Source: a virus. From it: 64,000 nt of DNA. This document shows positions 44,836-63,913 of the stretch, one piece after another. Below the pieces are notes generated by a model. It did not search any database, was not told the DNA's origin, and saw nothing but the letters and a program-made list of their open reading frames with translations. The stretch's first letter is position 1. Each line of letters starts with the position of its first letter. A program made the position numbers and the translations under genes. The DNA lies in IMG/VR virus record IMGVR_UViG_3300005529_000001, positions 272,882 to 336,881 of that record; one strand, 5' to 3'.

Positions 44836-45060
44836 ATGCTACGAATCGTTGTGACGGGACACCCAGCTGAGGGCAAGACGACGATCGCGATGATCATCGA
44901 GAAAGCTCTCAAAGACCACGGTATCTTGGTCAAGAACCTAGACCCCGACGTCGTCTACGGGTCAAGCAATCCCGACCTCCAGTCCAACCGAATCGAAACA
45001 CTTCGAGTTCGTTCTAGGGCTGAAAACGTTCACATCGAGACCGACCAGGTTCACAAATGA
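44836..45060 (+). CDS. small P-loop NTPase-like protein
   Basis: VVTGHPAEGKTT Walker A; start at ATG 44836 with AAGGGA RBS. Confidence 0.4.
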   Translation: MLRIVVTGHPAEGKTTIAMIIEKALKDHGILVKNLDPDVVYGSSNPDLQSNRIETLRVRSRAENVHIETDQVHK

Positions 45061-47066: not shown

Positions 47067-47998
47067 AGATACACTTCGATAACGTCAACTTAGACGCTCG
47101 AACAGGCCCGAACACGTTTGCTAGTCGACTAGCAAGAAAACTGTTCGAGATGGGACATTCTTGCCAGTTTGATGCCAAAGATGCCGACCTGAGCCTTGTT
47201 TTCATCGAACCCTCAGGAGCTTCCTTAGCAGCCAAAGTCGTCCAGCGGTTAGATGGTCTGTGGTTCAAGCCTTGGGAATTTGAGACAAAGAATGCTCGCA
47301 TCAAAGAGCTGTACCAAAAAGCCGACGCCATAGTCTTCCAGTCGGAGTTTGACCGTCAGTTCACCGAAAAACACTGGGGTTTGCAAGCGGCAACAGTCAT
47401 TCACAACGGCATTGAGCTAAACCCAGTCAAGCAGCTAACGATCCCGAAGCTAGTCGAGATGCGAGAAGCTTACGACCAGATCTATGTCTGTTCCAGCAAC
47501 TGGCACGCTCAAAAACGCCTTGAGACCAACGTCAGGCTGTTCAATCACCTGCGTAGCAAACACCCGAACTCGTGTCTCATCATTATGGGTGACCATCCTG
47601 ACTATCGAGCAACGGGCCCCCATACCTTCTACACCGGTCCGGTGGGCCCCGAAGTCTACAACCAGATCTACTCAGCAGCAAACTGGATGCTTCACCTAGC
47701 CTGGGCTGATCACTGTCCAAACGTGGTAGTTGAAGCTTTGGCCCAGGGCACGCCCGTTGTTTGCAGCAACGTGGGTGGAACCCAAGAACTGGTTGGCAAG
47801 TATGGCAAGGTTCTCGTAGACCAACCTTATGATTACGAGCTTTCTGATTATGATAACCCGCCGACCATCAACATTGAACAGGTCGATGACCTCCCCGACC
47901 GACAGAAGCTGGATTACACGGGCGTCGCCAACCTGATCGACATCAACACGGTGGCGAGGCAGTACGAGCTGATGTTTGAGGAGGTGGTTTCTCGCTGA
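47063..47998 (+). CDS. GT4-family glycosyltransferase
   Basis: HCPNVVVEALAQGTPVVCSNVGGTQELV (EX7E-type motif). Confidence 0.7.
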   Translation: MKIHFDNVNLDARTGPNTFASRLARKLFEMGHSCQFDAKDADLSLVFIEPSGASLAAKVVQRLDGLWFKPWEFETKNARIKELYQKADAIVFQSEFDRQFTEKHWGLQAATVIHNGIELNPVKQLTIPKLVEMREAYDQIYVCSSNWHAQKRLETNVRLFNHLRSKHPNSCLIIMGDHPDYRATGPHTFYTGPVGPEVYNQIYSAANWMLHLAWADHCPNVVVEALAQGTPVVCSNVGGTQELVGKYGKVLVDQPYDYELSDYDNPPTINIEQVDDLPDRQKLDYTGVANLIDINTVARQYELMFEEVVSR

Positions 47999-48601
47999 TT
48001 GGTGTACATTTGTTCTATGGGCAAGACGCGAAACGGCTTTGCGACGTGTACAGATTGCGGAGACGTTCGCTTCATGAAACGTCTAAGCTCGTCTGGATTT
48101 CGACTCTGTCGTAAGTGTGCTGCCAAACTGACAAATGCTCGAAGCAACTCTGCCTCGAAAGGCGGAAAAGTAGGCGGGAAACGAACGGCTGATCTGGGAA
48201 AATTGCAGGTTGCTGGACAGTTTGCTCACACTCCAGAAGCGGAGCGTAAGCGACACGAAACGTTGAAACGCATGGGCAAACTCTTTTCTTCCAAACCAGA
48301 AGAACATCTTCATAAATTGCTCATTGATCGGTTCGGTCCAGAAGATGTCGACCACCACATAATCGTGGCAGGGTTTCGGATCGACTTTTACGTCAAAAGT
48401 ATCAATACTTACATCCAGTTGGATGGCGCTTACTGGCACGGACTTCAACAACCCTACGATCAGTTGAAAGGTACACCCAAAGCGAAGTACGATCGAGACA
48501 GACGATGTGATGCCTACTTCACCGAAGTTGGAGTCCGTCTCGTCAGGATCATTGATACTGAGCTAGCGAAGGACGCTCAACATGCCCTCCAACGGATCTG
48601 A
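47999..48601 (+). CDS. DUF559/Vsr-like endonuclease domain protein with N-terminal zinc ribbon (homing endonuclease-like insertion)
   Basis: CTDCG...CRKC plus FRIDFYV...IQLDGAYWHG core. Confidence 0.5.
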   Translation: MVYICSMGKTRNGFATCTDCGDVRFMKRLSSSGFRLCRKCAAKLTNARSNSASKGGKVGGKRTADLGKLQVAGQFAHTPEAERKRHETLKRMGKLFSSKPEEHLHKLLIDRFGPEDVDHHIIVAGFRIDFYVKSINTYIQLDGAYWHGLQQPYDQLKGTPKAKYDRDRRCDAYFTEVGVRLVRIIDTELAKDAQHALQRI

Positions 48602-49637
48602 AAAAATTTACGTTCTCCCGCCCCAAGAGGACTGGATTGTGGATCGTATGACTGATGAGTGGTATACACACAACGCTGACATCAGCACCAGGAGTCCCCA
48701 AAAAGCTGATGTCATTTGGTTGATGGCAGATTGGGCTTGGCAGGCGTTGTGGCACGTCGGTCTTCTCAAAAACAAGAAGGTGTTGACGACTGTCCATCAC
48801 ATTGTGCCCGAGAAGTTCGGTCCTATGGAACGGGCTGACTTCGAACTTCGCGACACTGTTACTACTGCCTACCATGTCTTCAACCAGTACACCCACGATT
48901 TCATCCGGCCTCTGACCCTGAAACCCATCCACCTCATCAAGTACTGGGCAAATCAGGATCTGTGGAGACCTACTGGGACGAAGGAAGAATTCAGGAAAAA
49001 GTACAAACTTCCGCTAGATGTCTTTCTAGTAGGATCGTTCCAGAGAGATACTGAGGGTTCAAGTTTGGTGCTACTTGATCCAAAGCCTAAACTTGAAAAG
49101 GGCCCTGACAAATTTGTCGATTACGTGAAGATGCTTTCACAATATCGTGCTCAACACCAGATGTCGCCCGTTGCTGTCTTGTTGGGTGGATGGAGACGGC
49201 AATACATCACGACTCGTCTGCGCACGGAAGCTCCACACATCATGGTGTTTTCAACGGCTCCTGAAGATCGTATGCAGAAATGGTTTGAATACCCACAACC
49301 CGTTCCAGTTGTATGGACCTCGGCGAAATTGGTGCAGTCTCAACCTGTACCTCTGAAAGATTTTTTGCCCCCTCTCGAAACCATCAACGAGCTGTACCAG
49401 TGTCTTGACCAGTACGCGGTGACCGCGCGCCAAGAGGGCGGTCCCCAAGCCTTGATCGAGTGTGGCTTGCTGGGAGTGCCCACCGTGTCCACGCCAGTGG
49501 GCATTGCGGAGCAGGTGTTGCCACCATCAGCGATCTGTGAAAACGTTTTCTCCGCCTCACCTGCGGTCCCCAACGTCGAGAACTGGAAGCTACCGGGCGG
49601 GTTTGAACTATATAGGGAGTTGTTGCAGTCGTTATGA
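48582..49637 (+). CDS. GT-B (GT4-like) glycosyltransferase
   Basis: EGGPQALIECGLLGVPTVSTPVG. Confidence 0.55.
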   Translation: MPSNGSEKIYVLPPQEDWIVDRMTDEWYTHNADISTRSPQKADVIWLMADWAWQALWHVGLLKNKKVLTTVHHIVPEKFGPMERADFELRDTVTTAYHVFNQYTHDFIRPLTLKPIHLIKYWANQDLWRPTGTKEEFRKKYKLPLDVFLVGSFQRDTEGSSLVLLDPKPKLEKGPDKFVDYVKMLSQYRAQHQMSPVAVLLGGWRRQYITTRLRTEAPHIMVFSTAPEDRMQKWFEYPQPVPVVWTSAKLVQSQPVPLKDFLPPLETINELYQCLDQYAVTARQEGGPQALIECGLLGVPTVSTPVGIAEQVLPPSAICENVFSASPAVPNVENWKLPGGFELYRELLQSL

Positions 49638-50449
49638 GCGTAGCTTTTTTGCTTGTCACCTGCTGTCTTGAGCAGTCTCGTGCCGATCTCCTCGACAGGG
49701 TGGTCGAGAACCTGTGCGAACAAGCGCCTGAACTGCGAGAGACGATGCTTGTTTTTGACAACGCATCGACTGTCCCTGGCGTCAGGACCTTGCTGACATC
49801 AAACTTCCGTCATGTCCGTCAAGCTGACAGGAACGTCGGCTACTGGTCTGCGGTCGACTGGTGGCTCACGGTGCTCGATTCGGCACCCAAGAAGCCCGAC
49901 TTCACGTACATCATTGAGAGCGACATGATCCACTACAACTTCAATAAGCTGTGGGAATGTGCCGTCTACCTCGAACGAAACCCAGATGTGGGTTCGTGCC
50001 GGCTGCACCAGTACTCAGTCGTAGACAGGCACCTCTACAACAAAGACAGACCCCTGCCTGACAGCAAGCGCAATCTGTGGCAATCGCATCAAAACAAAGT
50101 GACGGGCGAGCAAGTCATCTTTTCACAATCAGAGGGTGACATCTGGACATCAACGTTCTTGACACAGCTCCCGGCACTGAACCGTTTTGAGACGATGAAA
50201 GAAGTCTTCCAAACGCTCCGAAGCTCTCCGATGTTTTCTGAGCTCGATTTCCAGATGAATTACTGGAAACGTTACCATCGAACAGCTATCCTCGACGGCG
50301 GGATCTTTCACTGTGATCTGAACCCACATGATGCTGGGACGCTAACTGGTTCGTGGTCATCGCCTGAACAACTAAAGCAGATCGGGTACAAGACCACGAG
50401 GATCGCAACAATCACTCCGCAAGACCAGTACACCGTTTGCTCGCTGTGA
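49634..50449 (+). CDS. putative GT-A (GT2-like) glycosyltransferase
   Basis: MLVFDNAST and ESDM acidic motif. Confidence 0.4.
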   Translation: MSVAFLLVTCCLEQSRADLLDRVVENLCEQAPELRETMLVFDNASTVPGVRTLLTSNFRHVRQADRNVGYWSAVDWWLTVLDSAPKKPDFTYIIESDMIHYNFNKLWECAVYLERNPDVGSCRLHQYSVVDRHLYNKDRPLPDSKRNLWQSHQNKVTGEQVIFSQSEGDIWTSTFLTQLPALNRFETMKEVFQTLRSSPMFSELDFQMNYWKRYHRTAILDGGIFHCDLNPHDAGTLTGSWSSPEQLKQIGYKTTRIATITPQDQYTVCSL

Positions 50450-50462
50450 TACAGTTCACAGG

Positions 50463-51503
50463 ATGTCTGGGACCCTTATCTTTGGCGGCACTGGTTCGCT
50501 CGGTCGCAAGCTGATTGAACGTCTCCTTCCCAAGGGAGACGTTGCTGTCTACTCACGTGATGAAGCGAAACACTGGACTATTCGAAATGAACTTTCGGGG
50601 TTCATTGAGAAAAGCTTGCCCTGGAAGCTTCAGTTCTTTGTGGGTGACGTCAGGGACAAAACTCGAGTCGAAGACGTCATTCGTCAGTACAACCCTGATA
50701 CGATCATCATTGCTGCGGCGCTGAAACAAGTAGACACTTGTGAGCTCAGCCCCAACGAAAGCGTGTTGACAAACCTGATTGGGACTCAGAACGTCATCGA
50801 CGCAGTCAACAAGTCACGGTTCTCCCCTGGTGTCTCAGTCATGTTCGTCAGCACCGACAAAGCTTGCGCACCTGTCAACGTCTATGGAATGTGCAAAGCA
50901 ATCTCAGAACGCGTCGTGACAAGCCAGGCTCGTACGGGGCTATCAAACGTCAGGTACCTAGCGGTCCGTTATGGCAACGTTCTCGAGTCTAGAGGTAGCA
51001 TCATACCGTTGTTCAAACACCAGTGTGAGAAAGGCGAGTTCTTGACGGTCACCGATCCCGAGATGACGCGGTACGTGATGACGCTAGATGACAGCGTGGA
51101 TCTTATCCAAAAAGCAATAGAGTTTGGAATCTCAGGTGAGACGTGGATCCCGTGTCTTCCAGCAATGAAGATCGGTGACCTTGCTGACATTTTTTCTCAA
51201 CGATATAACAAACCCGTCAAGGTCATTGGTTTACGGCCGGGAGAGAAGAAACACGAAGACCTGGTCAACGAGTCGGAGTCAGTTAGGACGCGTAAAATCA
51301 ATCCACCCGTGGGATTTAACTACGTCATCGACCCCGCGTTTCGTTCCGGCAATGGTCAACGGTTCACTTACTCTAGCTCGGACCTGGTCATGAATCGTGA
51401 AGATCTAGAGGTGTACCTCAACAAGCTTGGCATCTTTGACAAGCCGTTAGACCAGTTCAAGGGCCTTGCCATCGAAGAGATCGTCACCAACCGAAAGGAA
51501 TGA
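50463..51503 (+). CDS. UDP-GlcNAc 4,6-dehydratase-like protein (PseB/FlaA1/PglF/CapD family)
   Basis: GGTGSLGRKL Rossmann motif, YSRDEAK, YxxxK region. Confidence 0.7.
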   Translation: MSGTLIFGGTGSLGRKLIERLLPKGDVAVYSRDEAKHWTIRNELSGFIEKSLPWKLQFFVGDVRDKTRVEDVIRQYNPDTIIIAAALKQVDTCELSPNESVLTNLIGTQNVIDAVNKSRFSPGVSVMFVSTDKACAPVNVYGMCKAISERVVTSQARTGLSNVRYLAVRYGNVLESRGSIIPLFKHQCEKGEFLTVTDPEMTRYVMTLDDSVDLIQKAIEFGISGETWIPCLPAMKIGDLADIFSQRYNKPVKVIGLRPGEKKHEDLVNESESVRTRKINPPVGFNYVIDPAFRSGNGQRFTYSSSDLVMNREDLEVYLNKLGIFDKPLDQFKGLAIEEIVTNRKE

Positions 51504-52650
51504 CATGAAGACGTACCCGCTGTTCAAAGTCCACGTTCCCAAAGAGGAAGCTTTGGCCCAGTTGGGTCAGGTCTTCGACTCGGGTTTCATCAACGAAGGT
51601 ACGCAGGTCACCGCCCTGACCAGCCAGCTGTCTGAGTACCTAGAAAGCAATCACCTCATCCTGGTGAACAGCTGCACTAGCGCCTTGTTCATGGCGCTAA
51701 AACTCGCTGGGGTCGGTCCTGGAGACGAGGTCATCAGCACGGCGATGACGTGTGTGGCAACCAACGCTGCCATCGCAATGACAGGCGCTAAGATTGTCTG
51801 GGCTGACGTAGATCCTGAGAGCGGGATGCTTGATCCTTACAGCATCATGGAGAAGATCACTCCTCACACCAAAGCAGTCATGGCGGTGGCTTGGGCGGGA
51901 ACCCCACCTCACATGTTCATGTTGAAAAACACGTGCAAGGCATTTCATGTCAAGCTGATCTTGGATGCTGCACACGCGTTCGGCGCCTATTACAAAAATG
52001 CTCCCGTTCACGAGTGGGCTGACTACACTTGTTACTCATTCCAGGCTATCAAACACTTCACTACGGGGGACGGCGGCGCTCTTATCTGTACCGACAAGGC
52101 TGATTACCAGCGATCTAAGTCGATGAAATGGTTCGGGCTTGACCGTGACAAAACCAAGGATGCTGCGGGCAACTGGAAAGGCCAGCAGTGGGACACCGAC
52201 ATCGAGGAGATCGGCTACAAGTTTAACATGAACAACGTTTGTGCAGCCATCGGTCTGTCGCAGATGAAGCACGTTGACATGATCGTGGACGGCCACGTCA
52301 GGAACGGGGGCCGATATGACATGCTGTTCCTCGACTACGAGCCCGTTAGGCCAATCACGCGGCCAGACGGTAGCATCTCGGCACACTGGGTCTACACCAT
52401 GAAGGTGAACCCCGACAAGTGCAAGCTGTCACGTGACGATCTGTTGAAAGCTCTCAACGCTGAGAAGATCATGGCGGGAGTGGTACACGTTCCGAACGAC
52501 GATTACACCTGCTTTCAGGACATCAAAGACCATAACCTGAAGGGTCTCAAGCAGTTTGCACCCCACCAGTTCTCATTACCGTGTGGGTGGTGGCTTGAAG
52601 AGGAAGACATCCGTCACATCGCCAAGCGTGTCAAGGAACTCACACAATGA
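51504..52650 (+). CDS. DegT/DnrJ/EryC1-family PLP-dependent sugar aminotransferase (PseC/PglE-like)
   Basis: SFQAIKHFTTGDGGALI with conserved Lys; start re-set to ATG 51504. Confidence 0.7.
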
Positions 52651-53171
52651 GAGTTGATGTCCCGGACCAATATTACTTGCGTCCCGTTGAAAACGATGAT
52701 CACCCATTTCTTGTTGACTTGCACAATGATGAGCTGGTCCTCAGGAACTTGACACATCCAGAAGCCATCACTATGGAACAACACATGAAGTGGTGGGAGA
52801 AAACCAAAGCCGATCGGAAACAGCTTAGGTTGATCTTTGTGACAGACGGTCACCGGACGGGTGTTGCCAAGTTCTATGATTATGATGCCATCAACCGGAC
52901 GATTGTCCTGGGAGGCGACATCCACAAAGCACACAGGGGTCATGGGCTCGCTAAGTACATGTGGACGTTGATGCTTGAACGTTGTTTCGAGAGCTTCCAC
53001 GTTCACCGCGTTGGCCTGACGACCGCCGAATACAACGTGATCGGTCAAAGCGTCTACAAAAACTTGGGCTTCATGGAAGAGGGCCGGATCAAAGAATCGT
53101 TGTACCGTGATGGAAAGTTCTATGATCAGATCTGCATGTACCTAACAGAACACGATTGGGCGCTTCAGTGA
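52647..53171 (+). CDS. GNAT-family N-acetyltransferase (PseH-like candidate)
   Basis: GNAT motif A RGHGLAKYMW; follows dehydratase + aminotransferase. Confidence 0.6.
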   Translation: MRVDVPDQYYLRPVENDDHPFLVDLHNDELVLRNLTHPEAITMEQHMKWWEKTKADRKQLRLIFVTDGHRTGVAKFYDYDAINRTIVLGGDIHKAHRGHGLAKYMWTLMLERCFESFHVHRVGLTTAEYNVIGQSVYKNLGFMEEGRIKESLYRDGKFYDQICMYLTEHDWALQ

Positions 53172-53902
53172 ACGAACTGCCTCGTATCTTTGTGGGTACC
53201 ATGTACACCCAAGAGGGTGAGTTTGAGGGCTGTCTCAAACAGATCCGTGCGCAACAGGACGTCGTTGTTGCGCATGTCATCATTGCTAACATGCGTGAGA
53301 AAGAGGCACACAACGCTCTGTGGCACGCCTGGCGTCACCAGGGCTCAAGCCACGATCTCTTTGTTAAGGTCGATGCTGACACCATCCTAGCTTCACCACA
53401 CACGCTAAGGCTGATCTGGGAACAGTTCAATAACAACCCACGAGTCACGGGTCTCCAGGCACCGTTACATGATTACATGACTGATGGCCTGATCAACGGG
53501 CTCAATGCATTCTCAACCAAGGTCGTCTTCAATGATACCCAAGACGAACTGTACTGCGACAGGCAAGTGGACACGAACCATGATGTCGTCCTACGAGAGA
53601 AAGACCTACCATCAACGTTGATCCCGGCAGGTTTTCACTGTTGGAACTCGACTGACTCACAAGCTTTTCATTATGGCCTCCATCGGATGTTGAAGGGGCA
53701 ACGAACAACCATCGACAAAGTCAGAATGGCTTGGAACCGTGACCATGACAGACCAAGAGCTTGGGCTCTGATCGGCGCAAAGATGGCGGACCAGTTTACC
53801 ATCAATCGTCAGTTCAACTACAACGATCCGACGTTCAAAACAGCATTCGCTGAGGCAAATACACGTTATGATGAGCTCACCCAGAATCTTGCAGTTGGTT
53901 GA
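53156..53902 (+). CDS. hypothetical protein, possible GT-A-like glycosyltransferase
   Basis: VKVDADT acidic motif. Confidence 0.3.
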   Translation: MGASVNELPRIFVGTMYTQEGEFEGCLKQIRAQQDVVVAHVIIANMREKEAHNALWHAWRHQGSSHDLFVKVDADTILASPHTLRLIWEQFNNNPRVTGLQAPLHDYMTDGLINGLNAFSTKVVFNDTQDELYCDRQVDTNHDVVLREKDLPSTLIPAGFHCWNSTDSQAFHYGLHRMLKGQRTTIDKVRMAWNRDHDRPRAWALIGAKMADQFTINRQFNYNDPTFKTAFAEANTRYDELTQNLAVG

Positions 53903-54809
53903 CACCCTCGAGTACGCCAAGACCAACTGCTTCCAACACCAGTTGCTAAAGAGCCTACGAGGCATTGCACAAACAGAAACGTGTGCCTTGCCAGCGCTGG
54001 AACGTGCCCTGGACATGGATGACCGTCCTGTCATCGTTTGCCTGAAACAACGAACCCTGGCACAAAATCTGGACGTGCTCAAAGATCATTTAGGAGACAC
54101 GCCCATTGTCATATACGATCAGGACCCGTGGCAAGCCTACATGGATGATCCTGGTTATGTTGGCAAGGGAGTCTATGAACGCGCTGTCGAGCAACTAAAT
54201 GTCAAAGCGATCTGCGTTACCACCCAATGGTGGGCTGATTTCTTAGCGCACCGCGGTTTACCTGGCATTTTCGTCAACATGTGGATGTTACCCGAGTATT
54301 GCACCGAAACGCCAACATACGAAGACAGATCAATATCTGTAGGTTTCGTCGGCAGCCTGCATCCGCACCGTCAAAAGCTGTTTGACCAGCTCGAAGACAT
54401 GGGCATCATCGTCAACGTCCAAGGGGGAGGTCTGTCTTACCAGAGCTATTTGAACGAGCTATCAAAGATCCGTGTCTTCATCCATAGCGAAGATTGCCCA
54501 ATCATGTGTGAAAAGCAAGAACTCAACCTGAAAGACGCCCTGTGGATCAAAGACATTGAAGCCGCGGCTCGGGGTTGTTTCACCATTCGTAATGCGGGCG
54601 CGGGTTTCTTATCGTATTATGATGGGTGTTTGACGTCGTTTCTCTACGAAAACGTCGAAGACATCCCAAACATCCTGAGTGACATCCAGAAAATGGATCC
54701 CACGTCAAGGCAGTTGCTAATCAACAGCGCCGTCAGGTACATCCGTGAGTCAAACAAGTGGGAAGAAACGGCACGCACGTTGGTTACTTTGGCAACAGAG
54801 GGAACATGA
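53868..54809 (+). CDS. hypothetical GT-B-fold-like protein
   Basis: 313 aa; size/position compatible with PseG-type UDP-sugar hydrolase. Confidence 0.3.
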   Translation: MMSSPRILQLVDTLEYAKTNCFQHQLLKSLRGIAQTETCALPALERALDMDDRPVIVCLKQRTLAQNLDVLKDHLGDTPIVIYDQDPWQAYMDDPGYVGKGVYERAVEQLNVKAICVTTQWWADFLAHRGLPGIFVNMWMLPEYCTETPTYEDRSISVGFVGSLHPHRQKLFDQLEDMGIIVNVQGGGLSYQSYLNELSKIRVFIHSEDCPIMCEKQELNLKDALWIKDIEAAARGCFTIRNAGAGFLSYYDGCLTSFLYENVEDIPNILSDIQKMDPTSRQLLINSAVRYIRESNKWEETARTLVTLATEGT

Positions 54810-56083
54810 AAATAGGGTTCATGGGTCTGGGCAAGCTCGGGTTACCCGTTGCCCTGGCGGTGGAAGCCGCGGGCCACGAGGTGATGGGTTATGATCCTGG
54901 CGCTCAAGTTGTTGACATCATATCGACAAAGAAGCTACCGTATGTCGAAGAGAACGCCCAACCGTTGCTCGACAACACCAAGCTCCGGCTAGTAGGTCCC
55001 GGTGACCTGGTCGAACAGTGCGACTTGATCTTCGTAGCTGTCCAGACGCCCCACCACCCACGTTATGAGGGAGTCAGTCGCCTTCCGACCAAGCGAGTCG
55101 ATTTTGATTACACCTGGCTAAAGCAGTCGATCACCCAGCTCGCTGATGCTGCGGCCCAGAAAGCGAAGACGACCCGTGTTGTTGTCATCTCAACGGTGCT
55201 TCCCGGGACGATCGAACGTGAGATCTTCCCAATCATGCATGCGTACGGAAACTTCATCAAGCTGTGTTACAACCCGTTTTTCATCGCGATGGGAACCACG
55301 ATCCGTGACTTCACCAACCCAGAATTTGTTCTCTTTGGGGTAGACGATCACGAAACAGCAACCCTTGCTGAAACGTTTTACAAGACCATCCACGCTCGTC
55401 CCTTCTACAAGACGGGAATCAAGGAAGCTGAGCTGATCAAGGTTGCTTACAACACATTCATCAGCACAAAGATCGGGTTTGTCAACACGTTGATGGAGAT
55501 CTGTCACAAGACGGGTGTCAATGTCGATGCGGTCACAGACGGCTTGAAGCTAGCTAACGAACGTCTGATCAGCACCCGCTACATGACGGCTGGCATGGGC
55601 GATGGTGGCGGGTGTCACCCTCGCGATAACATCGCGTTGTCTTGGCTCGCTCGTAAGCTTGAATTGGGCTTTGATTTCTTTGAAGCGATCATGCTTTCCA
55701 GAGAACGACAGACGGATTGGTTTGCTGATGTGCTTGAAGAGCAGATCGAACAATGCCGGAAGATGGGCTGGAACCCGCCCGTTGTCATCCTCGGTCTATC
55801 TTTCAAACCGGAGACAAACCTGGTCACGGGCAGCCCGGCAATCTTGCTTGCAAACGTCATAGCGGAGCGTGGCATCACTCCCATGTTCTATGATCCCATT
55901 GTCAACCCCAATGACCGGACCCGGACGCTTCCCCCACCACCTGCTCTGTTTTTTGTGGGTACCAAGCACGCTGAGTTTGCAAACATAAAGTTTAGCGTAG
56001 GATCGATCGTTATCGACCCACACCGGTACATCCCCGATCAGCAAGGCGTCACTGTCATCAGGTTGGGTGATGGGACCAAGTGA
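54806..56083 (+). CDS. UDP-sugar 6-dehydrogenase family protein
   Basis: KIGFMGLGKLGLPVA NAD-binding motif; catalytic Cys GGGCHPRDN. Confidence 0.7.
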   Translation: MKIGFMGLGKLGLPVALAVEAAGHEVMGYDPGAQVVDIISTKKLPYVEENAQPLLDNTKLRLVGPGDLVEQCDLIFVAVQTPHHPRYEGVSRLPTKRVDFDYTWLKQSITQLADAAAQKAKTTRVVVISTVLPGTIEREIFPIMHAYGNFIKLCYNPFFIAMGTTIRDFTNPEFVLFGVDDHETATLAETFYKTIHARPFYKTGIKEAELIKVAYNTFISTKIGFVNTLMEICHKTGVNVDAVTDGLKLANERLISTRYMTAGMGDGGGCHPRDNIALSWLARKLELGFDFFEAIMLSRERQTDWFADVLEEQIEQCRKMGWNPPVVILGLSFKPETNLVTGSPAILLANVIAERGITPMFYDPIVNPNDRTRTLPPPPALFFVGTKHAEFANIKFSVGSIVIDPHRYIPDQQGVTVIRLGDGTK

Positions 56084-56774
56084 GTTTTTGGTCTCAGTCC
56101 TTGTCCCAACTCGAAACAGGGTCAAGTTGTTAGAGAAATCGTTGCGTTCGTTAAAAGACAACGCTCGGCTTGATTTCAAGCAGAAAATTGAGATCATCAT
56201 AAAGCTCGATGAAGATGATGTAGCGACCCAAAACTGGGTGATACAAAACAACGCCGAGCTGTGGACAACGCTGTTACCTGGGCCGCGCGGGCGCGGTTAC
56301 GCTGACCTCCACGTCTACTACAATGACATGTGTCGTTTGGCTCGGGGCGAGTTCTTGTTCCTCTGGAACGATGATGCTGAGATGTTGACGCCGGGCTGGG
56401 ACCTGGAGATCAACCGACAACTTGATGGCAAGCCGTGTTACTTGCAATCTGAAGTCAGCGACATTCGTGGACGTGACGCTTTCTTGTTTCCTATCGTTCA
56501 CAGGTCATGGTACGACAGCTGCGGTCACTTCTCGATGTCACCGCACAATGACACGTACGTGTTTAACGCATTCATCAAGTACCCGCAGCTGTTCCGTAAA
56601 ACGGCGATCGTGGTGCGACACGCCGCGTTACAAAATTTGCATGACATCACCAGCTTAGAAGCACGAGGGTGGTGGCCGACAACCAAGAGAGGTTGGGGCA
56701 GCCCGGAAGTCCAGGACTCGCTAGCGTCTGACATCAAACGCTTGGGAGAGCTGGTGAAACAGTATAAGCTGTAA
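56067..56774 (+). CDS. GT2-family glycosyltransferase
   Basis: VLVPTRNR and NDDAEM (DxD). Confidence 0.6.
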   Translation: MMGPSEFLVSVLVPTRNRVKLLEKSLRSLKDNARLDFKQKIEIIIKLDEDDVATQNWVIQNNAELWTTLLPGPRGRGYADLHVYYNDMCRLARGEFLFLWNDDAEMLTPGWDLEINRQLDGKPCYLQSEVSDIRGRDAFLFPIVHRSWYDSCGHFSMSPHNDTYVFNAFIKYPQLFRKTAIVVRHAALQNLHDITSLEARGWWPTTKRGWGSPEVQDSLASDIKRLGELVKQYKL

Positions 56775-56790
56775 AGATTACATTCTACGC

Positions 56791-57771
56791 ATGAAGAGCA
56801 TCGCCGTCGTGGGCCAGGGTTTCGTTGGTGGATCGCTAACGACAGTTTTTGCAGAGCGTGGCTTTGACGTGTATGCTTATGACAAAGCGGGCAAGATCGC
56901 TACGGGTGCTAAGGTTCCTCGCTTCCATGGCCACGGAACTGGGCCTGATGGAATCGAAGCTACATCTGTCAAGGGCTTGGTCTTTGCGATGGATGAATTG
57001 GGTAAGGCTTTCAGCAACGTCTACTTCGTGTGCTTGCCGACCCCCATGTTCGAGGACGGCGAGGCTGACCTGTCGATCGTTGAGGGCGTCCTCGCTGAGC
57101 TCGCCGAAGCGCACAAGGTCCTGGAGCGTTGGGGGATCGCGGTCGTCAAATCGACGGTCCCGCCGGGCTCAGTCGAGCGATGGAACAAGGCTTTCAACTC
57201 ACAGGGTCTCTACATCGTCTTCAATCCAGAATTCCTGACAGAGGCCAACGCCCTGGACGACATGCGCAACCAGGATCGGATCATCCTGGGCGGGCCCCGC
57301 CCCTACATCAACATTGTCAAGCTGCTGTTTCAGACGGCGTTCAAGGGCGTCCCCGTCATCAAGACCTCATCGACGACGGCGGAGATGGTGAAGTACACCA
57401 TCAACTGCTTCCTGGCGACCAAGGTCGCCTTCGCCAACGAGATCGCGCAGATCACTGAAGCGCTGGACGCTGACGGTCTTAACGTCGACTATGACAAAGT
57501 GGTTGAGTACGCCAAGCTCGACAAGAGGTTGGGCAACAGCCATTGGGCAGTACCAGGGCCCGTGCCCACGCACGATGGGCGATACGTGCGCGGTTTCGGA
57601 GGGCACTGTTTCCCCAAAGACTTGAATGCGCTTGTTTTCGTTGCGAAACAACTCGGGGTTGACCCGAAAGTCCTCACCAGTGTCTGGGCCAAGAACCTTG
57701 AGGTCCGCGGGCCCGAAGACCGCGACTGGGAACACATGCAAGGCCGAGCTGTCAGCAAGAAAAAGAAGTGA
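56791..57771 (+). CDS. UDP-glucose/GDP-mannose dehydrogenase family protein (second copy, shorter)
   Basis: VVGQGFVGG and catalytic Cys GGHCFPKD. Confidence 0.65.
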   Translation: MKSIAVVGQGFVGGSLTTVFAERGFDVYAYDKAGKIATGAKVPRFHGHGTGPDGIEATSVKGLVFAMDELGKAFSNVYFVCLPTPMFEDGEADLSIVEGVLAELAEAHKVLERWGIAVVKSTVPPGSVERWNKAFNSQGLYIVFNPEFLTEANALDDMRNQDRIILGGPRPYINIVKLLFQTAFKGVPVIKTSSTTAEMVKYTINCFLATKVAFANEIAQITEALDADGLNVDYDKVVEYAKLDKRLGNSHWAVPGPVPTHDGRYVRGFGGHCFPKDLNALVFVAKQLGVDPKVLTSVWAKNLEVRGPEDRDWEHMQGRAVSKKKK

Positions 57772-57877
57772 AACATTCAGTTTGGGCTGAATAGGGTATG
57801 CTCAAGACGGGAATCCCACCGTCGCCTTGACGTTGAAGCCAGTGAGGCTGAGTCAGGGACTCAACACGGAGAGTGTC

Positions 57878-58885
57878 ATGAGCGAGTTTGGAATTGTCAT
57901 CATGCGGGCACAGCCCTTTCACAATGCGCACCTGGAATTGGTGCGTTTTGCGCTTAAGGAAGCGCAAAAAGTAGTCATCATCCTGGGAAGTGCCAACGCG
58001 CCCCGGGACACAATGAACCCCTTCACCGCCGACCAACGGCGTGACATGGTCAGGAGTTGCCTGACTGCCGACGAGCTCTCTCGTGTCGAGATCATCTCCG
58101 CGAAAGACTACCTCTCAAACAACATGTGGATCGCAGCGGTCCAAAACTCGGTCGATGCTGTCACGGGCGGGTCCAGTGATATCAAGCTGATCGGTCACAA
58201 GAAAGACGCCTCAAGCTTCTACTTGAAGCTGTTTCCACAGTGGAGCTTCCATGAGACGGGAGCTTTCTCTGAGCTCAATGCGACGAGCGTCAGGGAGAAC
58301 CTGTTCCGACAGGATAAGATCACCATCAAGACGCAGGTGCCGAAGCCGGTCTACGACTACCTGTGCTCTTGGATGGAGAGCGCTGAGTACAAGCGCCTCC
58401 ATGGTGAGTACAAGAACGTACAAGAAGAACATGCCGCTTGGGAGGAGAGCCCTTACGTCCCCACCTTCGTGACGACAGACGCCATCGTCATCTGCAGCGG
58501 TCACATCCTCATCGGCCGCCGGGGTGGAGCTTACGGCAAGGACCTGCTGGCTTGGCCAGGTGGGTACCTAGAGCAAGACAAGTCAATCCTGGACTCTTGC
58601 ATCCGTGAGCTCCGGGAGGAGACGAAGCTCAAGGTCTCGACCGAAGACCTGAAGAAGGCGGTCATCGATAAGGACGTTTTCGATGACCCCCGGCGCGACC
58701 AACGCGGGCGTGTCATCACCCATGCCTTCTGTTTCAAGCTGCCCGATGGGCGGCTACCTGAGGTCCAGGGTGCGGACGACATGGCCAAGGCATGGTGGAT
58801 GACCATCAACGAGTTCTACACCCGAGAGCTCGAGTTCTTCGCAGACCATTTCAAGATGGGCTGCCGTTTCATCAATCGATTTTAA
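57878..58885 (+). CDS. nadM: bifunctional NMN adenylyltransferase / Nudix hydrolase (NadM-Nudix)
   Basis: H-x-G-H type PFHNAHL; Nudix box PGGYLEQDKSILDSCIRELREETKL. Confidence 0.85.
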   Translation: MSEFGIVIMRAQPFHNAHLELVRFALKEAQKVVIILGSANAPRDTMNPFTADQRRDMVRSCLTADELSRVEIISAKDYLSNNMWIAAVQNSVDAVTGGSSDIKLIGHKKDASSFYLKLFPQWSFHETGAFSELNATSVRENLFRQDKITIKTQVPKPVYDYLCSWMESAEYKRLHGEYKNVQEEHAAWEESPYVPTFVTTDAIVICSGHILIGRRGGAYGKDLLAWPGGYLEQDKSILDSCIRELREETKLKVSTEDLKKAVIDKDVFDDPRRDQRGRVITHAFCFKLPDGRLPEVQGADDMAKAWWMTINEFYTRELEFFADHFKMGCRFINRF

Positions 58886-58941
58886 AAAGTTCCGCCCGAT
58901 CGAGCCAGAGAGGCCCGCGAGGCGCATCACGGAGAGTGAAT

Positions 58942-60393
58942 ATGAGAACCACATACATCAGGACGTACCTTAGAAAACCCGACCTCGAGCTCAGCGCGAT
59001 CGAGGACACTGACTCGTATAAATTCAGCCACTTCCCCATGTACCCGGGCATGTCGTACATGGAGAGTTATCTCGAGGCTCGGGGCGGCGAGTTCGACACC
59101 TGTACCCTGTTTGGGTTGCAGTACGTCATCCACAAGTACATCGCCAAGCGTGTGACAGCAGCTGATGTCGAACGTGCTGAAGCCTTCGCCCTGGCACACG
59201 GTGAGCCGTTCAACCGCAAAGGTTGGATGCACATCGTCACGAAGTACCACGGTTACCTTCCCATCACCATCCGCGCCATCCCAGAGGGCATGGTGGTGCC
59301 CGTCAAGAACGCCGTGATGATTGTCAGGAGCCCGGTCGATCCCGAGTGTGCCTGGATCACTAACTGGTTGGAGACGTTGCTGTCCAGGGTCTGGTACCCG
59401 TCGACGGTCGCCATCGCGAGTCGCGAGATCAAGAAGGTCTGGAAGCATTACCTCGACCTGACCAGCGACACCCCCGAGGAGATCAGCTTTAAACACCATG
59501 ACTTCGGTTCGCGTGGCGTCACCAGCCAGGAGCAGGCGATGCTCGGCGGCGCGGCCCACCTGCTTAACTTCCTCGGTAGCGATACCATCGCGGGCATCCG
59601 CATGGCGAATCACTATTACGACGAAGCCATGGCGGGTTTCAGCATCCCAGCCACCGAGCACTCGACGATCACCATCTTCGGTCGTGACCACGAACGTGAT
59701 GCCCTCAAGCTCTGGATCCAGAAGATGCTGGTCGAGCGTCAGGTCCCCGAAGGGCTGCCCAAGCTCGCTGCTTGCGTTGGCGACTCTTACGACATTTACC
59801 GTTTCACGGAGATGGTTTGCGAACCCGAGATCTACGCCATGATTAAGGGTTCGGGCGGCACCCTGGTCGAGCGCCCCGATTCGGGCGACCCGATCGAGGT
59901 GCTTCTCAGGATCCTCGGCATCATGGAGGATCGCCTCCCAAAGGGTGAGATCACTGTCAACTCTAAGGGTTTCAAGGTGTTGCCTGCGTGCCTCCGTCTC
60001 ATCTGGGGCGATGGCATCAACCGTCGCAGCATGAAGACGATCCTGAAGGCAATCACAGACGCAGGATGGAGCGCCTCAAACCTGGCTTTCGGTTCGGGCG
60101 GTGGCCTGCTGATGGATTTCAACCGCGACACCCAGAAATGGGCGTTCAAGCTGTGCTACGCCATCGTGGACGGCACACCGCGCAAGGTGTCGAAGGACCC
60201 GATCACCGACCCGGGCAAGCGCTCGAAAGAGGGTCACCTCGATTTGATCGTCACCCCAAATGGCGTCGAAACGGTCACTATTCCAGACAATGTTGCAGCT
60301 CATCACAACAGCGTCATGGTGACCTACTACGATGGTGGTGACATCACATTCCACACCGACATGACCGCCTGCCGGACAAGGATGGCGATCTGA
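58942..60393 (+). CDS. nadV: nicotinamide phosphoribosyltransferase (NadV/NAMPT)
   Basis: NAMPT-like regions GSDTIAG, HSTITIFG, GSGGGLLMD; ATG 58942 with GGAGAG RBS. Confidence 0.8.
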   Translation: MRTTYIRTYLRKPDLELSAIEDTDSYKFSHFPMYPGMSYMESYLEARGGEFDTCTLFGLQYVIHKYIAKRVTAADVERAEAFALAHGEPFNRKGWMHIVTKYHGYLPITIRAIPEGMVVPVKNAVMIVRSPVDPECAWITNWLETLLSRVWYPSTVAIASREIKKVWKHYLDLTSDTPEEISFKHHDFGSRGVTSQEQAMLGGAAHLLNFLGSDTIAGIRMANHYYDEAMAGFSIPATEHSTITIFGRDHERDALKLWIQKMLVERQVPEGLPKLAACVGDSYDIYRFTEMVCEPEIYAMIKGSGGTLVERPDSGDPIEVLLRILGIMEDRLPKGEITVNSKGFKVLPACLRLIWGDGINRRSMKTILKAITDAGWSASNLAFGSGGGLLMDFNRDTQKWAFKLCYAIVDGTPRKVSKDPITDPGKRSKEGHLDLIVTPNGVETVTIPDNVAAHHNSVMVTYYDGGDITFHTDMTACRTRMAI

Positions 60394-60412: not shown

Positions 60413-60847
60413 ATGGATTACACCGCAAGCAAGATCGCCGATCACCTGTTCCAAGGCGGACGACCACCCCCGGGTGACGGCCTGAAAAACGCCGGGGTAG
60501 ACGTCCTAGTCCTCTGTGCCAGAGAGTGGCAAGAGAGCGCGCTCTACCCCGGACTCATCGTCATCAAAGCTCCTGGTGATGATGATCGACGTGAACATCG
60601 GTTAATGCAGTCCATCGACAAGTGGAAGCTCGCCGCAGAACTCTCAGCCGAACATGTCATGGCAGGTCGCAACGTCTTGATCACTTGCATGCAGGGACTC
60701 AATCGTTCAGGACTAGTCATGGCTATGACGTTACGGATTCTGACGGGATGGTCGGGAAAGAAGATCGTCGAGCACATCCAGAATCACCGCGAGCATGCCT
60801 TGTTCAACGATACGTTCGTTCGTTACATTGAGACCAACTACCCATGA
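60413..60847 (+). CDS. dual-specificity/tyrosine protein phosphatase
   Basis: CX5R catalytic loop CMQGLNRSG. Confidence 0.7.
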   Translation: MDYTASKIADHLFQGGRPPPGDGLKNAGVDVLVLCAREWQESALYPGLIVIKAPGDDDRREHRLMQSIDKWKLAAELSAEHVMAGRNVLITCMQGLNRSGLVMAMTLRILTGWSGKKIVEHIQNHREHALFNDTFVRYIETNYP

Positions 60848-61350
60848 TCAACTACCTTGTCGGAGACGCAACTGATCCACGGGTTACGGGCAACAAGATC
60901 ATCGCTCATGTCTGCAATGACATTGGTGGCTGGGGCAGAGGGTTCGTCTTGTCGGTGTCCAAGAAGTGGTCCGAGCCCGAAGCGGTTTACCGTCAAGGGA
61001 AAGACCTGACCTTGGGATCTGTCATGTTTGTCCCGGTATCCCACACCGATACAACCATCCAGGAGACGATCTACGTCGCAAACATGATTGGCCAGCGCGG
61101 TGTCATTGCAGCCGAAGACGGCACCCCACCCATCCGTTACGAAGCCATCGAAACGTGCTTGGGACGCGTCAGAGCGTTTGCGTTGCAGCTCGGTGGAGCA
61201 AGCGTCCACATGCCCCGGATCGGTTGCGGCCTGGCAGGAGGTAAATGGAGCAAGATGGAACCCATCATCGAGCGAGCGCTTGATGGCATCGACACATACG
61301 TGTATGATTTTGACACGAAAGACTCCCGGACTGTTTCCTGGAACAAGTGA
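60844..61350 (+). CDS. macro domain protein (ADP-ribose binding / mono-ADP-ribosylhydrolase-like)
   Basis: IIAHVCNDIGGWGRGFV and VHMPRIGCGLAGG. Confidence 0.75.
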   Translation: MINYLVGDATDPRVTGNKIIAHVCNDIGGWGRGFVLSVSKKWSEPEAVYRQGKDLTLGSVMFVPVSHTDTTIQETIYVANMIGQRGVIAAEDGTPPIRYEAIETCLGRVRAFALQLGGASVHMPRIGCGLAGGKWSKMEPIIERALDGIDTYVYDFDTKDSRTVSWNK

Positions 61351-61994: not shown

Positions 61995-62351
61995 ATGGCC
62001 ACCATCAAAGAGGGTGACAAGCTTTACGTGGTGACCCGGAGAGACATCTCTCCAGGCTATCAGGGCGTCCAATCACAACATGCAGCCATCCAGTTTGCGT
62101 TTGACCATCCCGAACGTGGGACGGAGTGGTTCAAGAACTCGAACTACTTGGCATGGCTGTCGGTCGAGAATGAGGTTGAGCTGATGAAGCTCATCACTGA
62201 TGCTGCGGACGTCGGGCTCAAATGGTCAGCGTTCAGGGAGCCCGACGTGGGTGGCCAGATCACTGCGATCGCGCTCGAGCCCCACCCACGGACTGCCGCG
62301 CTGTGCAAAGCATTGCCGCTTGCGCTTAGAGAACTGGAACAGGTGAAGTGA
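61995..62351 (+). CDS. peptidyl-tRNA hydrolase, PTH2 family
   Basis: KLYVVTRRDISPGYQGVQSQHAAIQFA parallels PTH2 [25 protein letters not shown]. Confidence 0.6.
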   Translation: MATIKEGDKLYVVTRRDISPGYQGVQSQHAAIQFAFDHPERGTEWFKNSNYLAWLSVENEVELMKLITDAADVGLKWSAFREPDVGGQITAIALEPHPRTAALCKALPLALRELEQVK

Positions 62352-62352
62352 C

Positions 62353-62712
62353 ATGGACCAAGCACTTAATACCATCGTCTATGACGATTTCGCCAGAGTT
62401 GACATGCGTGCGGGCCTCATCACAGCCGCAGAGGCTTTGCCAAAGTCAGAGTTGCTGAAGCTCCAGGTTGACTTCGGTGAGCTAGGAACTCGGCAGGTCC
62501 TTGCTCGTCTCGGCAAGAGCTACGAGCCAGCAACTCTTGTCAACCTCACCGCAGCGTTCGTCGTCAACTTGCCCCCACGTACCATGAAGGATCTTGAGAG
62601 TAACGGCATGATCCTTGCGGCAGAAGTCAAGGATTCTGATGTTCCTGCTCCACACCGCGTTGCCGTGGTGTTGCTCCCCGGGACAGTCCGACCAGGAACG
62701 AGGTTGGGATGA
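62353..62712 (+). CDS. tRNA-binding domain protein (Trbp111/CsaA/MetRS C-terminal 'Myf' domain)
   Basis: VDMRAGLITAAE...LKLQVDFGELGTRQVLARLGKSY...NLPPRTMKDLESNGMILAAE. Confidence 0.75.
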   Translation: MDQALNTIVYDDFARVDMRAGLITAAEALPKSELLKLQVDFGELGTRQVLARLGKSYEPATLVNLTAAFVVNLPPRTMKDLESNGMILAAEVKDSDVPAPHRVAVVLLPGTVRPGTRLG

Positions 62713-63335
62713 CAGAGAACCGCGCGACGTTCTTCGCTAGGTTGGAACCTGTGTTGGCTCCGAGCGACCTGCTCGATGTCCAACTCGCTTACACCCTGGC
62801 GAAATTCGGCCATCGGGCTCAGGCTCGCAAGGAGCTGGGGCCTGCAGGCAAAGCAGTGCGTTATTTCGAGCACTGCCGTCGTGTCGCGCTCATCCTCATT
62901 GATGAGGTCAAGATCGTCGAACCTGGGCTTGTCATCACCGCCCTTCTACATGATTGTCCGGAAGACACTAAGGATGTCAATCCCGCCATCATTGAGCACT
63001 GCTTTGGGCACAAGGTCGTCACCAGTGTCAAGGTCCTGAGCAAGACGCCCAAGGAAGGCTACAACGAGCGATTTTGGGCTTGTTCGCTTTGGCAGCCCTA
63101 CATCATCAAGGGATGTGATAGGCTTGACAACCTGAGGTCACTGTACTGCTGCCCGGATGACTTCCGAGCCAAACAGGTGGCTGAGACACGGGAGAAGTAC
63201 TTCCCGCTGTTCGACCGGATGATGCACCTGGTCCCCATCAAACACCGCGAACGAGCGGCATGGCTTCGCGACGCGGTGCGTCGCGAGACCGAACGCCAAG
63301 CAACGTTACTGGAGGCGTCACATGAAGAAGTCTGA
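62709..63335 (+). CDS. HD-domain small alarmone hydrolase (SpoT/Mesh1-like (p)ppGpp hydrolase)
   Basis: HCRRVALIL...LLHDCPEDT and CDRLDNLRS (cf. ADRLHNMRT). Confidence 0.7.
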   Translation: MTENRATFFARLEPVLAPSDLLDVQLAYTLAKFGHRAQARKELGPAGKAVRYFEHCRRVALILIDEVKIVEPGLVITALLHDCPEDTKDVNPAIIEHCFGHKVVTSVKVLSKTPKEGYNERFWACSLWQPYIIKGCDRLDNLRSLYCCPDDFRAKQVAETREKYFPLFDRMMHLVPIKHRERAAWLRDAVRRETERQATLLEASHEEV

Positions 63336-63750
63336 GCTGGAACACTTCATCACCCTGACCCTGGGTGACTGGTCACATGACGGTCACAGCCAGACTGACG
63401 TCATCACCGTCAGGTGTAACGTCGACAAGAAGGACCTCGAGAAAGCATATAAAAAGGGCACCAAGAAATTAGGTTTCGATCTCACCGAAGATGTCTGCGC
63501 CGACTACGAAGACATGTCGGCATCAGCCGACGTCATCGAAAAGCTCAAAACTGCTGGTATCAAGCCCGAAGATTTCATCGAGAACGAAGATGAAGATGAC
63601 GAGGGATGGTCATTCGCCTACAATGTCGAAGCCTTCGCCAGTCTCTGGCTGCGTATCGCTCAGTTGGGCGATCCCGATCTCAAGTACGAGCTCGTCGAAA
63701 CCAACCCGAACAATATTAACATCGGAGGTTACGGCCTATTTGGATCTTGA
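63322..63750 (+). CDS. hypothetical acidic protein
   Basis: 142 aa. Confidence 0.35.
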   Translation: MKKSELEHFITLTLGDWSHDGHSQTDVITVRCNVDKKDLEKAYKKGTKKLGFDLTEDVCADYEDMSASADVIEKLKTAGIKPEDFIENEDEDDEGWSFAYNVEAFASLWLRIAQLGDPDLKYELVETNPNNINIGGYGLFGS

Positions 63751-63757
63751 ACATAAC

Positions 63758-63830
63758 GGGTCCGTAGCTCAATGGCAGAGCAGCTCGATTTCAACCGAGT
63801 GTGTTGCGGGTTCAAGTCCCGTCGGGCCCC
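63758..63830 (+). tRNA. tRNA-like gene, 73 nt, 8-nt anticodon loop AUUUCAAC; anticodon ambiguous (UUC/Glu or UCA register)
   Basis: Acceptor GGGUCCG/CGGGCCC, D-arm GCUC-AAUGGCA-GAGC, T-arm GCGGG-UUCAAGU-CCCGU; only good anticodon stem GCUCG/CGAGU forces 8-nt loop. Confidence 0.6.
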
Positions 63831-63836
63831 CAAAAA

Positions 63837-63910
63837 GCTCCCGTAGCTCAGAGGCAGAGCAGCCGGATTTCAACCCGATGCGGTCGTGGGTTCGATCCCC
63901 ACCAGGAGCG
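63837..63910 (+). tRNA. tRNA-like gene, 74 nt, same AUUUCAAC anticodon-loop, weaker stems
   Basis: D-arm GCUC-AGAGGCA-GAGC, T-arm GUGGG-UUCGAUC-CCCAC, acceptor with one C-A mismatch; anticodon stem imperfect. Confidence 0.45.
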
Positions 63911-63913
63911 CAA

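Follow-up and report, generated by a model that had tools for sequence, protein, structure and literature searches.

To our knowledge, an enlarged anticodon loop is extremely rare in wild-type transfer RNAs (tRNAs); the textbook examples are laboratory frameshift suppressors and a few organellar oddities. Suppressor tRNAs with ordinary loops have been described in phages. The standard-code phage XacN1 encodes two tRNA-Sup-CUA without identifiable target genes (PMC5852040), and the tRNA-Sup-CTA of the Stenotrophomonas phage Summit, also a standard-code phage, is likewise without identifiable targets (PMC9022506). Atkins et al. mention in their review non-standard-loop "tRNAs in a phage" (PMC5009743). 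In the present work we analyzed a tandem pair of tRNA genes at the end of a 64,000-nucleotide stretch of viral DNA, i.e., positions 272,882 to 336,881 of the IMG/VR record IMGVR_UViG_3300005529_000001, hereafter the window. The sequence examined comprised about 84 kb (the window and 20 kb of flanking sequence) of the 369.5-kb metagenomic contig ENA ERZ27279688 k141_1055159. Both tRNAs have an anticodon loop of eight nucleotides (nt) instead of seven, and the conserved partner of their relatives in other phages is a small helical protein. On balance we favor the view that they are functional phage opal suppressor-type tRNAs with an 8-nt loop, residing in a mobile cassette together with this protein.

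In the window ARAGORN called two tRNA genes and no more, located on the plus strand at 63758-63831 and 63837-63911; no additional tRNA was found in the 10 kb beyond the window. Both genes received the label "tRNA-???" with the four-base anticodon ttca, i.e., an 8-nt loop. Both also matched the Rfam tRNA model RF00005 above its gathering score of 29 (scores in Table 1), in agreement with a first-pass annotation of this DNA that had reported two tandem tRNA genes with canonical arms. In tRNA 1, the acceptor stem GGGUCCG/CGGGCCC is followed by discriminator C, and CCA is not encoded. The anticodon stem GCUCG/CGAGU has five base pairs including one G.U pair, and the minimum-energy structure computed with RNAfold is a cloverleaf with this 5-bp stem and an 8-nt loop. 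tRNA 2 has the acceptor stem GCUCCCG/CAGGAGC with one A.C mismatch and discriminator G73. Its anticodon stem GCCGG/CCGAU contains one C.A mismatch in the 8-nt register, compared with two mismatches if the loop is drawn with 7 nt. The first-pass annotation had described one loop on two different bodies; the loop is indeed identical, but the bodies are not unrelated, because the two genes are paralogous, with 53 of 73 positions identical and the same D arm.

Selenocysteine tRNA was rejected as an identity of the pair: both tRNAs have a 7-bp acceptor stem and a variable region of 5-6 nt, whereas tRNA-Sec needs a long variable arm and an acceptor/T helix of 8+5 bp. The "SeC" labels that ARAGORN gave to relatives reflect the tca anticodon only. 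Rfam moreover reported a match to the Y RNA-like family YrlA at 63799-63863 on the plus strand (30.8 bits, below the gathering score of 69). It extends from the T arm of tRNA 1 into the D arm of tRNA 2 and is most likely a by-product of the two adjoining tRNAs.

In a short T/C-rich stretch, a single additional base might conceivably be an artifact, and a sequencing error had been named from the outset as the alternative to a true 8-nt loop; an assembly indel or a decay of the genes into pseudogenes would have to be considered likewise. We therefore set the pair beside its relatives. In three IMG/VR contigs, the protein encoded directly upstream (142 amino acids (aa) in the window) is 62% identical and the syntenic tRNA has the same loop AUUUCAAC on a different, fully paired stem, GUCCG/CGGAU. 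A close relative of tRNA 1 in locus L287 has the fully co-varied stem GCCAG/CUGGU. Pattern scans of viral and metagenomic collections, with patterns that contained the loop sequence, yielded 47 distinct relatives, and the 8-nt register gave the best pairing in 43 of them. Over all 47, this register had 80.4% of stem cells paired and a covariation score of 0.546, compared with 59.6% and 0.126 for the register slid by -1 (the Glu register) and 51.9% and 0.225 for the register slid by +1. Changes on both sides were seen in 46 cells of the 8-nt register, and none of 500 shuffles attained the observed values. Both tRNAs thus depart from the seven-membered loop of the tRNA family, and the claim that the stem forces an 8-nt loop is borne out by the ARAGORN call, the minimum-energy fold of tRNA 1 and the covariation. 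Among all fetched loci, loops of a size other than 7 nt occurred in 3 of 153 ordinary tRNAs and in 39 of 94 stop-anticodon tRNAs.

Since the relatives have the same loop on different, compensated stems, we regard a sequencing or assembly error as excluded by these comparisons. Both genes of the window have this loop, as do dozens of independent assemblies from different samples, and the contig itself is present in three data sets; we hence give a negligible chance to an indel or to decaying pseudogenes. The alignments instead indicate that the 8-nt loop around a stop anticodon is under purifying selection across a large family. So far this family looks virus-restricted. When 185,579 bacterial and archaeal genomes were scanned with a pattern of loop and T arm (at least 120 matches), no inspected match was called as a tRNA by ARAGORN, and the inspected matches were due to chance or protein-coding, apart from one possibly tRNA-like sequence in a Peribacteria metagenome-assembled genome (L179).

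We then asked which loop bases are the anticodon, for which UUC (Glu), UCA (opal) and four-base UUCA had been offered. The partner and homologous tRNAs found without selecting on the loop have the loops AUUUCAAC, ACUUCAAG, ACUUCAAA, CUUUCAAU, CCUUCAAC and UUUUCAAC. In these variants UUCAA is invariant, the preceding base is always a pyrimidine, and in none of them could the first loop base form a Watson-Crick pair with the last. The resulting pattern N-Y-U-[UCA]-A-N keeps the rules for Y32, U33 and A37 all together only with UCA as anticodon, and UCA flanked by U33 and a purine at position 37, i.e., U-UCA-A, is invariant. With UUC or UUCA as anticodon, several lineages (ACUUCAAG/A, CCUUCAAC) would have C in place of U33. 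tRNAs of sister cassettes have CUA, or once UUA, at the same position. AUUCUAAC in L365 is the exact amber counterpart of AUUUCAAC, position for position, and the body of tRNA 2 (GCUCCCG...G73) recurs with a CUA anticodon in L318. Because the loop variants fit Y32-U33-UCA-A37 and the sister tRNAs carry CUA or UUA there, the best reading of the two tRNAs is that of an opal (UGA) suppressor type with one extra 5' loop base. The anticodon of tRNA 1 would then lie at 63791-63793, with U63790 as U33, A63794 as A37 and A63788 as the extra 5' base, and that of tRNA 2 at 63870-63872.

A register one base further 5' would make the pair variants of tRNA-Glu(UUC) that still read GAA/GAG, the extra base 3' of A37 conferring resistance to a host anticodon nuclease. 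Phage tRNAs that evade anticodon nucleases via loop changes are known, and ARAGORN labeled many relatives as tRNA-Glu (ttc). The D arm of the tRNA 2 body type is often Glu-like (GCCUAGAGGYCAGGC), presumably resembling that of E. coli tRNA-Glu, and the relative L131 is a true 7-nt tRNA with the loop AUUUCAA. This register nevertheless pairs and covaries distinctly worse, as given above, and leaves the U33 position unconserved. Sister cassettes have CUA or UUA at the homologous positions and no sense anticodons. Moreover, canonical tRNA-Glu coexists with family members: one phage (L134) encodes ordinary tRNA-Glu(UUC) and tRNA-Trp(CCA) besides its 8-nt member, and Stenotrophomonas phage DLP5 also encodes a canonical tRNA-Glu(UUC). 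We consider a glutamate tRNA very improbable; of the proposed registers, UUC is disfavored and UCA favored.

In the jumbo-phage relatives the tRNAs form a fixed pair, type A first and type B 1-7 nt later, which we found in at least nine lineages. Type A starts with GGKYCYG and has a variable discriminator, type B with GCUYCCG and has G73. Nearly all opal-type members have an enlarged loop and most amber-type members the canonical loop CUCUAAA, an automated tally that is indicative only, as ordinary tRNAs were mixed in. 7-nt loops do exist in the cassette, i.e., CUCUAAA in DLP5 and UUUCAAA in L378. Many cassette members have only 3-4 paired anticodon-stem positions or an A31.N39 mismatch. With regard to amino-acid identity, the two tRNAs and a type A relative matched mixed isotypes (Lys, Met, His, Asn, Gly, Arg, Val) in BLAST searches against cultured phages. 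Erythrobacter phage XM05, from these matches, was set aside, for it has only an ordinary tRNA array. G73 together with C35 and A36 in type B would suit tryptophanyl-tRNA synthetase, going by the E. coli identity rules.

Clustering of the open reading frames (ORFs) within 6 kb of the family tRNAs revealed a small-protein gene in 32 of about 47 loci, far above any other neighbor. Some of these loci lie in phages whose surroundings are otherwise unrelated, with a terminase, portal or PhoH gene alongside. The protein core has the motif ..LKVKIKSLAxEAxIIR..HR...VR.E.R..LLAYGFLRG..Y...E and gave no match in Pfam, PHROG, NCBIfam or PDB sequences. A profile search retrieved 715 representatives (clustered at 50% identity), all of them without a name. 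AlphaFold2 predicts a long helical hairpin with additional short helices at a predicted local distance difference test (pLDDT) score of 82.5 for the whole chain and of more than 90 over most of residues 10-110. A system of transfer-messenger RNA (tmRNA) and SmpB was rejected: ARAGORN and Rfam find no tmRNA at the tRNA pair, and the partner protein is an all-helical hairpin, SmpB a beta-barrel.

When we started from the protein, the tRNAs were found again. In a first scan of IMG/VR viral contigs, all 25 loci had one or two tRNAs about 0.4-2.4 kb downstream, and all of these were suppressor-like, with a UUCAA-core 8-nt loop in 21 loci and CUA in four. A second scan covered 73 loci of a divergent subfamily, where the adjoining tRNA had CUA in 21, a UCA-type anticodon in 13 and UUA in one. 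Eight more tRNAs, two with degenerate D arms, were rescued by Rfam or motif search, giving about 43 of the 73 loci; about 40% of the divergent-subfamily loci had no detectable tRNA within 2.5 kb. The CUUUCAAU tRNAs at L357 (2320-2387) and L335 (2352-2418) have a shortened or degenerate D arm, were missed by ARAGORN and scored barely above the Rfam threshold. In L339, an Rfam tmRNA match (3832-3944, plus strand; 51.9 bits, gathering score 47) lies about 1 kb downstream of a cassette with a CUUUCAAU tRNA.

Cultured carriers of the cassette are the Stenotrophomonas phages DLP5, DLP3 and Summit and the Agrobacterium phages OLIVR1-3. An annotated tRNA-Sup-CTA lies 8 nt downstream of the homologue DLP05_071 in DLP5, and in OLIVR1 a tRNA with the 8-nt loop GCCCUAAC precedes the homologue gp84. 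This OLIVR1 tRNA (L325 2572-2648; MT234338.1 40274-40350) has a perfect 5-bp stem and the ARAGORN anticodon ccta. It is annotated as tRNA-Val in the OLIVR1 record, probably wrongly, and the adjacent gp84 as "putative structural protein". From the sequences of all these loci we infer that one or two stop-anticodon tRNAs and the small protein form a widespread, mobile two-part cassette in unrelated phages.

An -Ala-Ala C-terminus is present in 28 of the 73 small proteins (e.g., ...KKAA, ...LAA; loci L326-L398, protein match at about 2501-2830), and others end in -Ala. The copy in the window is exceptional in that it ends in ...SAQ after a low-complexity tail. The -Ala-Ala end resembles the ssrA/ClpXP C-terminal degron, which suggests a short-lived regulator. 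A correspondence between the stop codon of the small-protein gene and the suppressor type was looked for and not found. Likewise, a conserved 15-codon "extension" past the TGA of the small-protein gene in the jumbo relatives was discarded, as it is probably the start region of the following PTH2 gene read in another frame.

Several observations weigh against functional opal suppressors. First of all, TGA ends 55 of 72 roughly called genes (76%) in the window, which has about 52% G+C, and many of these TGA stops are four-base ATGA/GTGA start-stop overlaps between consecutive genes. The prevalence of TGA had been noted in the first-pass annotation and remains the main paradox: because TGA is the main stop of the phage, an efficient opal suppressor would harm its own proteome. 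Moreover, there was no TGAA avoidance and no excess of TAA or TAG back-up stops in the window, no gene in the window and 20 kb of flanking sequence needed UGA readthrough, and under the standard code the genes for terminase, portal, protease and gp23-like capsid protein are intact. For tRNA 2, RNAfold favors an anticodon arm that is not folded canonically. The discriminator of type A can be A, C or U, and D arms are degenerate in a few members; both features are unusual for bacterial translational tRNAs. Finally, the first family collection was biased by its loop-containing patterns, and an unbiased view of the loops comes only from the partner tRNAs and the protein-found loci; the scans starting from the partner protein corrected this bias.

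The phage uses the standard code. A recoded phage of the code 4 type was rejected, given ORFs that are long and dense under the standard code together with the intact late genes and the share of TGA stops, and a crude comparison of standard, TGA-sense and TAG-sense codes gave no sign of recoding. We also inspected readthrough and +1 extensions after every stop, with Pfam searches on candidates. These were ordinary adjacent genes (e.g., for glycosyltransferases and PseB/PseC-like enzymes) without fused domains. One weak candidate, an MTES_1575 restriction-endonuclease-like ORF at 47999-48601 on the plus strand, lies in frame after the TGA of a glycosyltransferase gene (47063-47998) and was judged to be a separate inserted gene. 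With the standard code and TGA as dominant stop, suppression would probably be weak, timed or context-dependent.

The first-pass annotation had pointed to expanded loops as the hallmark of +1 frameshift suppressors (cf. PMC5009743). As natural quadruplet decoders, the tRNAs would pair UUCA with UGAA, or read UGA and then slip, at a few programmed sites. The layout of two bases, a four-base anticodon and two further bases is as in engineered or sufD-type tRNAs, in most members with U before and A after the anticodon. ARAGORN called ttca, the 8-nt loop is under selection, and OLIVR1 and L365 have 8-nt loops with CCUA and UCUA. However, in this layout the U33-position base is C in the lineages named above, and the 7-nt members in DLP5 and L378 leave a three-base stop anticodon as the common feature. 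The window contains no ORF pair that needs a +1 shift at TGAA and no UGAA-dependent frameshift site. TGAA is also kept among the TGA stops (following base A 11, C 12, G 19, T 13; n = 55). Natural tRNAs with 8-nt loops can read triplets normally, as described for yeast mitochondrial tRNA-Thr (PMC3113583), and the odd-loop tRNAs of a phage in the review cited above are not known to mediate frameshifting (PMC5009743). Of the earlier frameshift proposal the expanded loop thus stands, whereas a dependent site or TGAA avoidance was not found in the window, and we regard quadruplet decoding as distinctly unlikely.

A stop anticodon (UCA, CUA or UUA) is the only feature common to the cassette tRNAs, and the simplest mechanism is therefore pairing with a stop codon in the ribosomal A site. 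The loop of the opal suppressor type would be arranged as an extra 5' nucleotide A followed by U32 U33 U34 C35 A36 A37 C38. The upstream gene ends at 63750, 7 nt before tRNA 1; 6 nt separate tRNA 1 from tRNA 2, and about 4 nt lie between tRNA 2 and the next ORF (start at about 63915). The region from 61.3 to 64 kb revealed nothing that resembles a terminator. With this tight spacing, the tRNAs would be co-transcribed with the flanking genes, excised by host RNase P and 3' processing, and completed with a CCA end by the host enzyme. A host aminoacyl-tRNA synthetase would presumably charge them, and they could then compete with release factor 2 (RF2) for UGA in the A site, leading to readthrough. 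The second part of the cassette would be the small basic helical protein, often ending in -Ala-Ala, encoded beside one or two tRNAs. The conflict with the phage's own stops is greatest for the opal versions, to which the extra loop base is nearly specific. Since the enlarged loop is almost confined to opal members and the partner protein travels with the tRNA, both may serve to tune or control tRNA activity. Neighboring genes for PTH2, a tRNA-binding protein and peptide deformylase are related to translation as well.

The same linkage of tRNA and protein would also fit tRNA-shaped RNAs that are no adaptors at all, but ligands or partners of the small protein. They might be decoys against a host defense that targets tRNAs or relates to release factors, or the RNA half of a toxin-antidote-like pair, with the anticodon loop as the element recognized by a protein. 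The tRNA often lies 8-400 nt from the small basic protein gene and the pair moves together, the protein often has an -AA end like the degradation tag of labile antidotes, and a suppression target was looked for in vain. The D arm is degenerate in some members, and acceptor stems and discriminators are not conserved, whereas most members keep G18G19, the T loop and the 7-bp acceptor stem. The surroundings in the window, i.e., NAD+ salvage, a weak macro-domain match, a phosphatase, an HD hydrolase and PTH2, resemble counter-defense. On the other hand, the small protein matched no known defense family (the PADLOC defense-system library was not searched), and an invariant stop anticodon (UCA, CUA, UUA) in correct tRNA context is hard to explain except by pairing with stop codons on the ribosome. 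We hence consider a non-adaptor role unlikely.

We also make a broader proposal, tentatively: the -AA-tailed helical protein and its stop-anticodon tRNAs may constitute an unrecognized mobile phage system that acts at stop codons during standard-code infections. Such a system could be a regulated readthrough switch, a means to counter or exploit release factors, or a counter-defense device. In combination with this proposal, and no less provisionally, the 8-base loop might be a natural device by which genomes with UGA as their main stop can tolerate a UGA-reading tRNA or restrict it to certain contexts. Phage suppressor tRNAs as such are already known; the two-part cassette has a substantial probability of representing a new system.

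The genome itself belongs to a T4-like jumbo phage with terminase, T4-type portal and S77 prohead protease genes in the window and a gp23-like capsid gene just outside it. Its helicase shares about 33% identity with the helicases of Tunturiibacter phage Tunturi_5, Bacillus phage G and XacN1, and a megablast search of the 61-64 kb region against cultured phages gave no match. The genes between 61995 and 63750 (Table 1) are context of this lineage, with a synteny that is restricted to related jumbo phages and not cassette-wide. Further upstream on the plus strand lies an NAD+ salvage pair, NMNAT-Nudix followed by NAMPT (57827-60393). A dual-specificity phosphatase-like gene (60413-60847) and a weak macro-domain match (60844-61350) come next. 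Taken together, the genes upstream of and around the tRNAs look like an island for translation upkeep and counter-defense. A peptide deformylase gene (PF01327, 399-893, minus strand) is located at the other end of the window beside GIY-YIG, S77 prohead protease, T4-type portal and terminase genes. A sugar-modification cluster at about 39300-57800 (plus strand) contains several GT1/GT2/GT4 glycosyltransferases, two UDP-glucose dehydrogenase-like genes and methyltransferases, as well as a PseB-like dehydratase (50463-51503) and a DegT/PseC-like aminotransferase (51466-52650).

Table 1. Position of the tRNA pair, the partner protein gene and the genes between them in the window.
Feature	Position	Strand	Basis
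tRNA 1 ("type A" body)	63758..63830	+	ARAGORN; Rfam, 52.2 bits; minimum-energy cloverleaf
tRNA 2 ("type B" body)	63837..63910	+	ARAGORN; Rfam, 46.9 bits; body type recurring in at least nine lineages
tRNA 1 anticodon loop AUUUCAAC, 8 nt	63788..63795	+	Sequence, loop variants, covariation
tRNA 2 anticodon loop AUUUCAAC, 8 nt	63867..63874	+	Sequence; same arguments as for tRNA 1
Small helical protein gene, 160 aa, conserved core about 110 aa	61504-61986	+	Most conserved tRNA partner across phages
PTH2-like peptidyl-tRNA hydrolase	61995-62351	+	Pfam
tRNA-binding domain protein PF01588	62353-62712	+	Pfam
HD_4 phosphohydrolase	62709-63335	+	Pfam
142-aa protein, no assigned function	63322-63750	+	Neighbor clustering

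Literature searches for 8-nt loops, four-base anticodons and UUCA in phages returned no description of a UCA family with 8-nt loops or of the partner protein. Several papers have found no targets for phage suppressor tRNAs, which are now tied to a conserved partner protein, and the presence of the cassette in cultured phages makes the question directly testable. If the tentative proposal of a stop-codon system is true, it would explain the long-standing puzzle of these "orphan" suppressors. The tRNAs may also supply natural scaffolds for genetic-code expansion, i.e., for UGA or four-base decoding that tolerates a genome in which UGA stops abound.

With the orphan suppressors of XacN1, Summit and DLP5, the pair shares the stop anticodon in a phage genome of standard code, and DLP5 has the partner protein directly upstream. 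Theirs are amber suppressors with 7-nt loops, in contrast to the opal type with 8-nt loops in two tandem paralogues found here, in a phage with TGA as main stop. Recoded phages (code 15 with TAG read as Gln, code 4 with TGA read as Trp; crAss-like, Lak and jumbo phages) also bring their own stop-reading tRNA into a standard-code host. They have many in-frame stops in late genes, whereas the late genes here are intact and TGA ends most genes.

The 8-membered anticodon loop in an otherwise normal tRNA is shared with sufD, sufJ, sufA6/sufB2 and engineered quadruplet tRNAs (PMC5009743, PMC9094753). Those frameshift suppressors are laboratory mutants or were engineered from sense tRNAs, whereas the family described here is wild-type and built around a stop anticodon, without a known frameshift site. 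A natural, conserved 8-nt loop with triplet decoding that is tied to a change in codon meaning is found in yeast mitochondrial tRNA-Thr(UAG) (PMC3113583, PMC7609411). That tRNA differs in being organellar, in reassigning a sense codon and in having a dedicated synthetase and no such partner protein. A link between the geometry of the anticodon arm and UGA decoding has finally been reported for tRNA-Trp of Blastocrithidia and Condylostoma and in a bacterial survey, where 4-bp anticodon stems read UGA (NAR 2026; PMC13092985). Those tRNAs combine a CCA anticodon with a 7-nt loop, whereas the phage tRNAs have UCA and an inserted loop base, in tRNA 1 on a full 5-bp stem.

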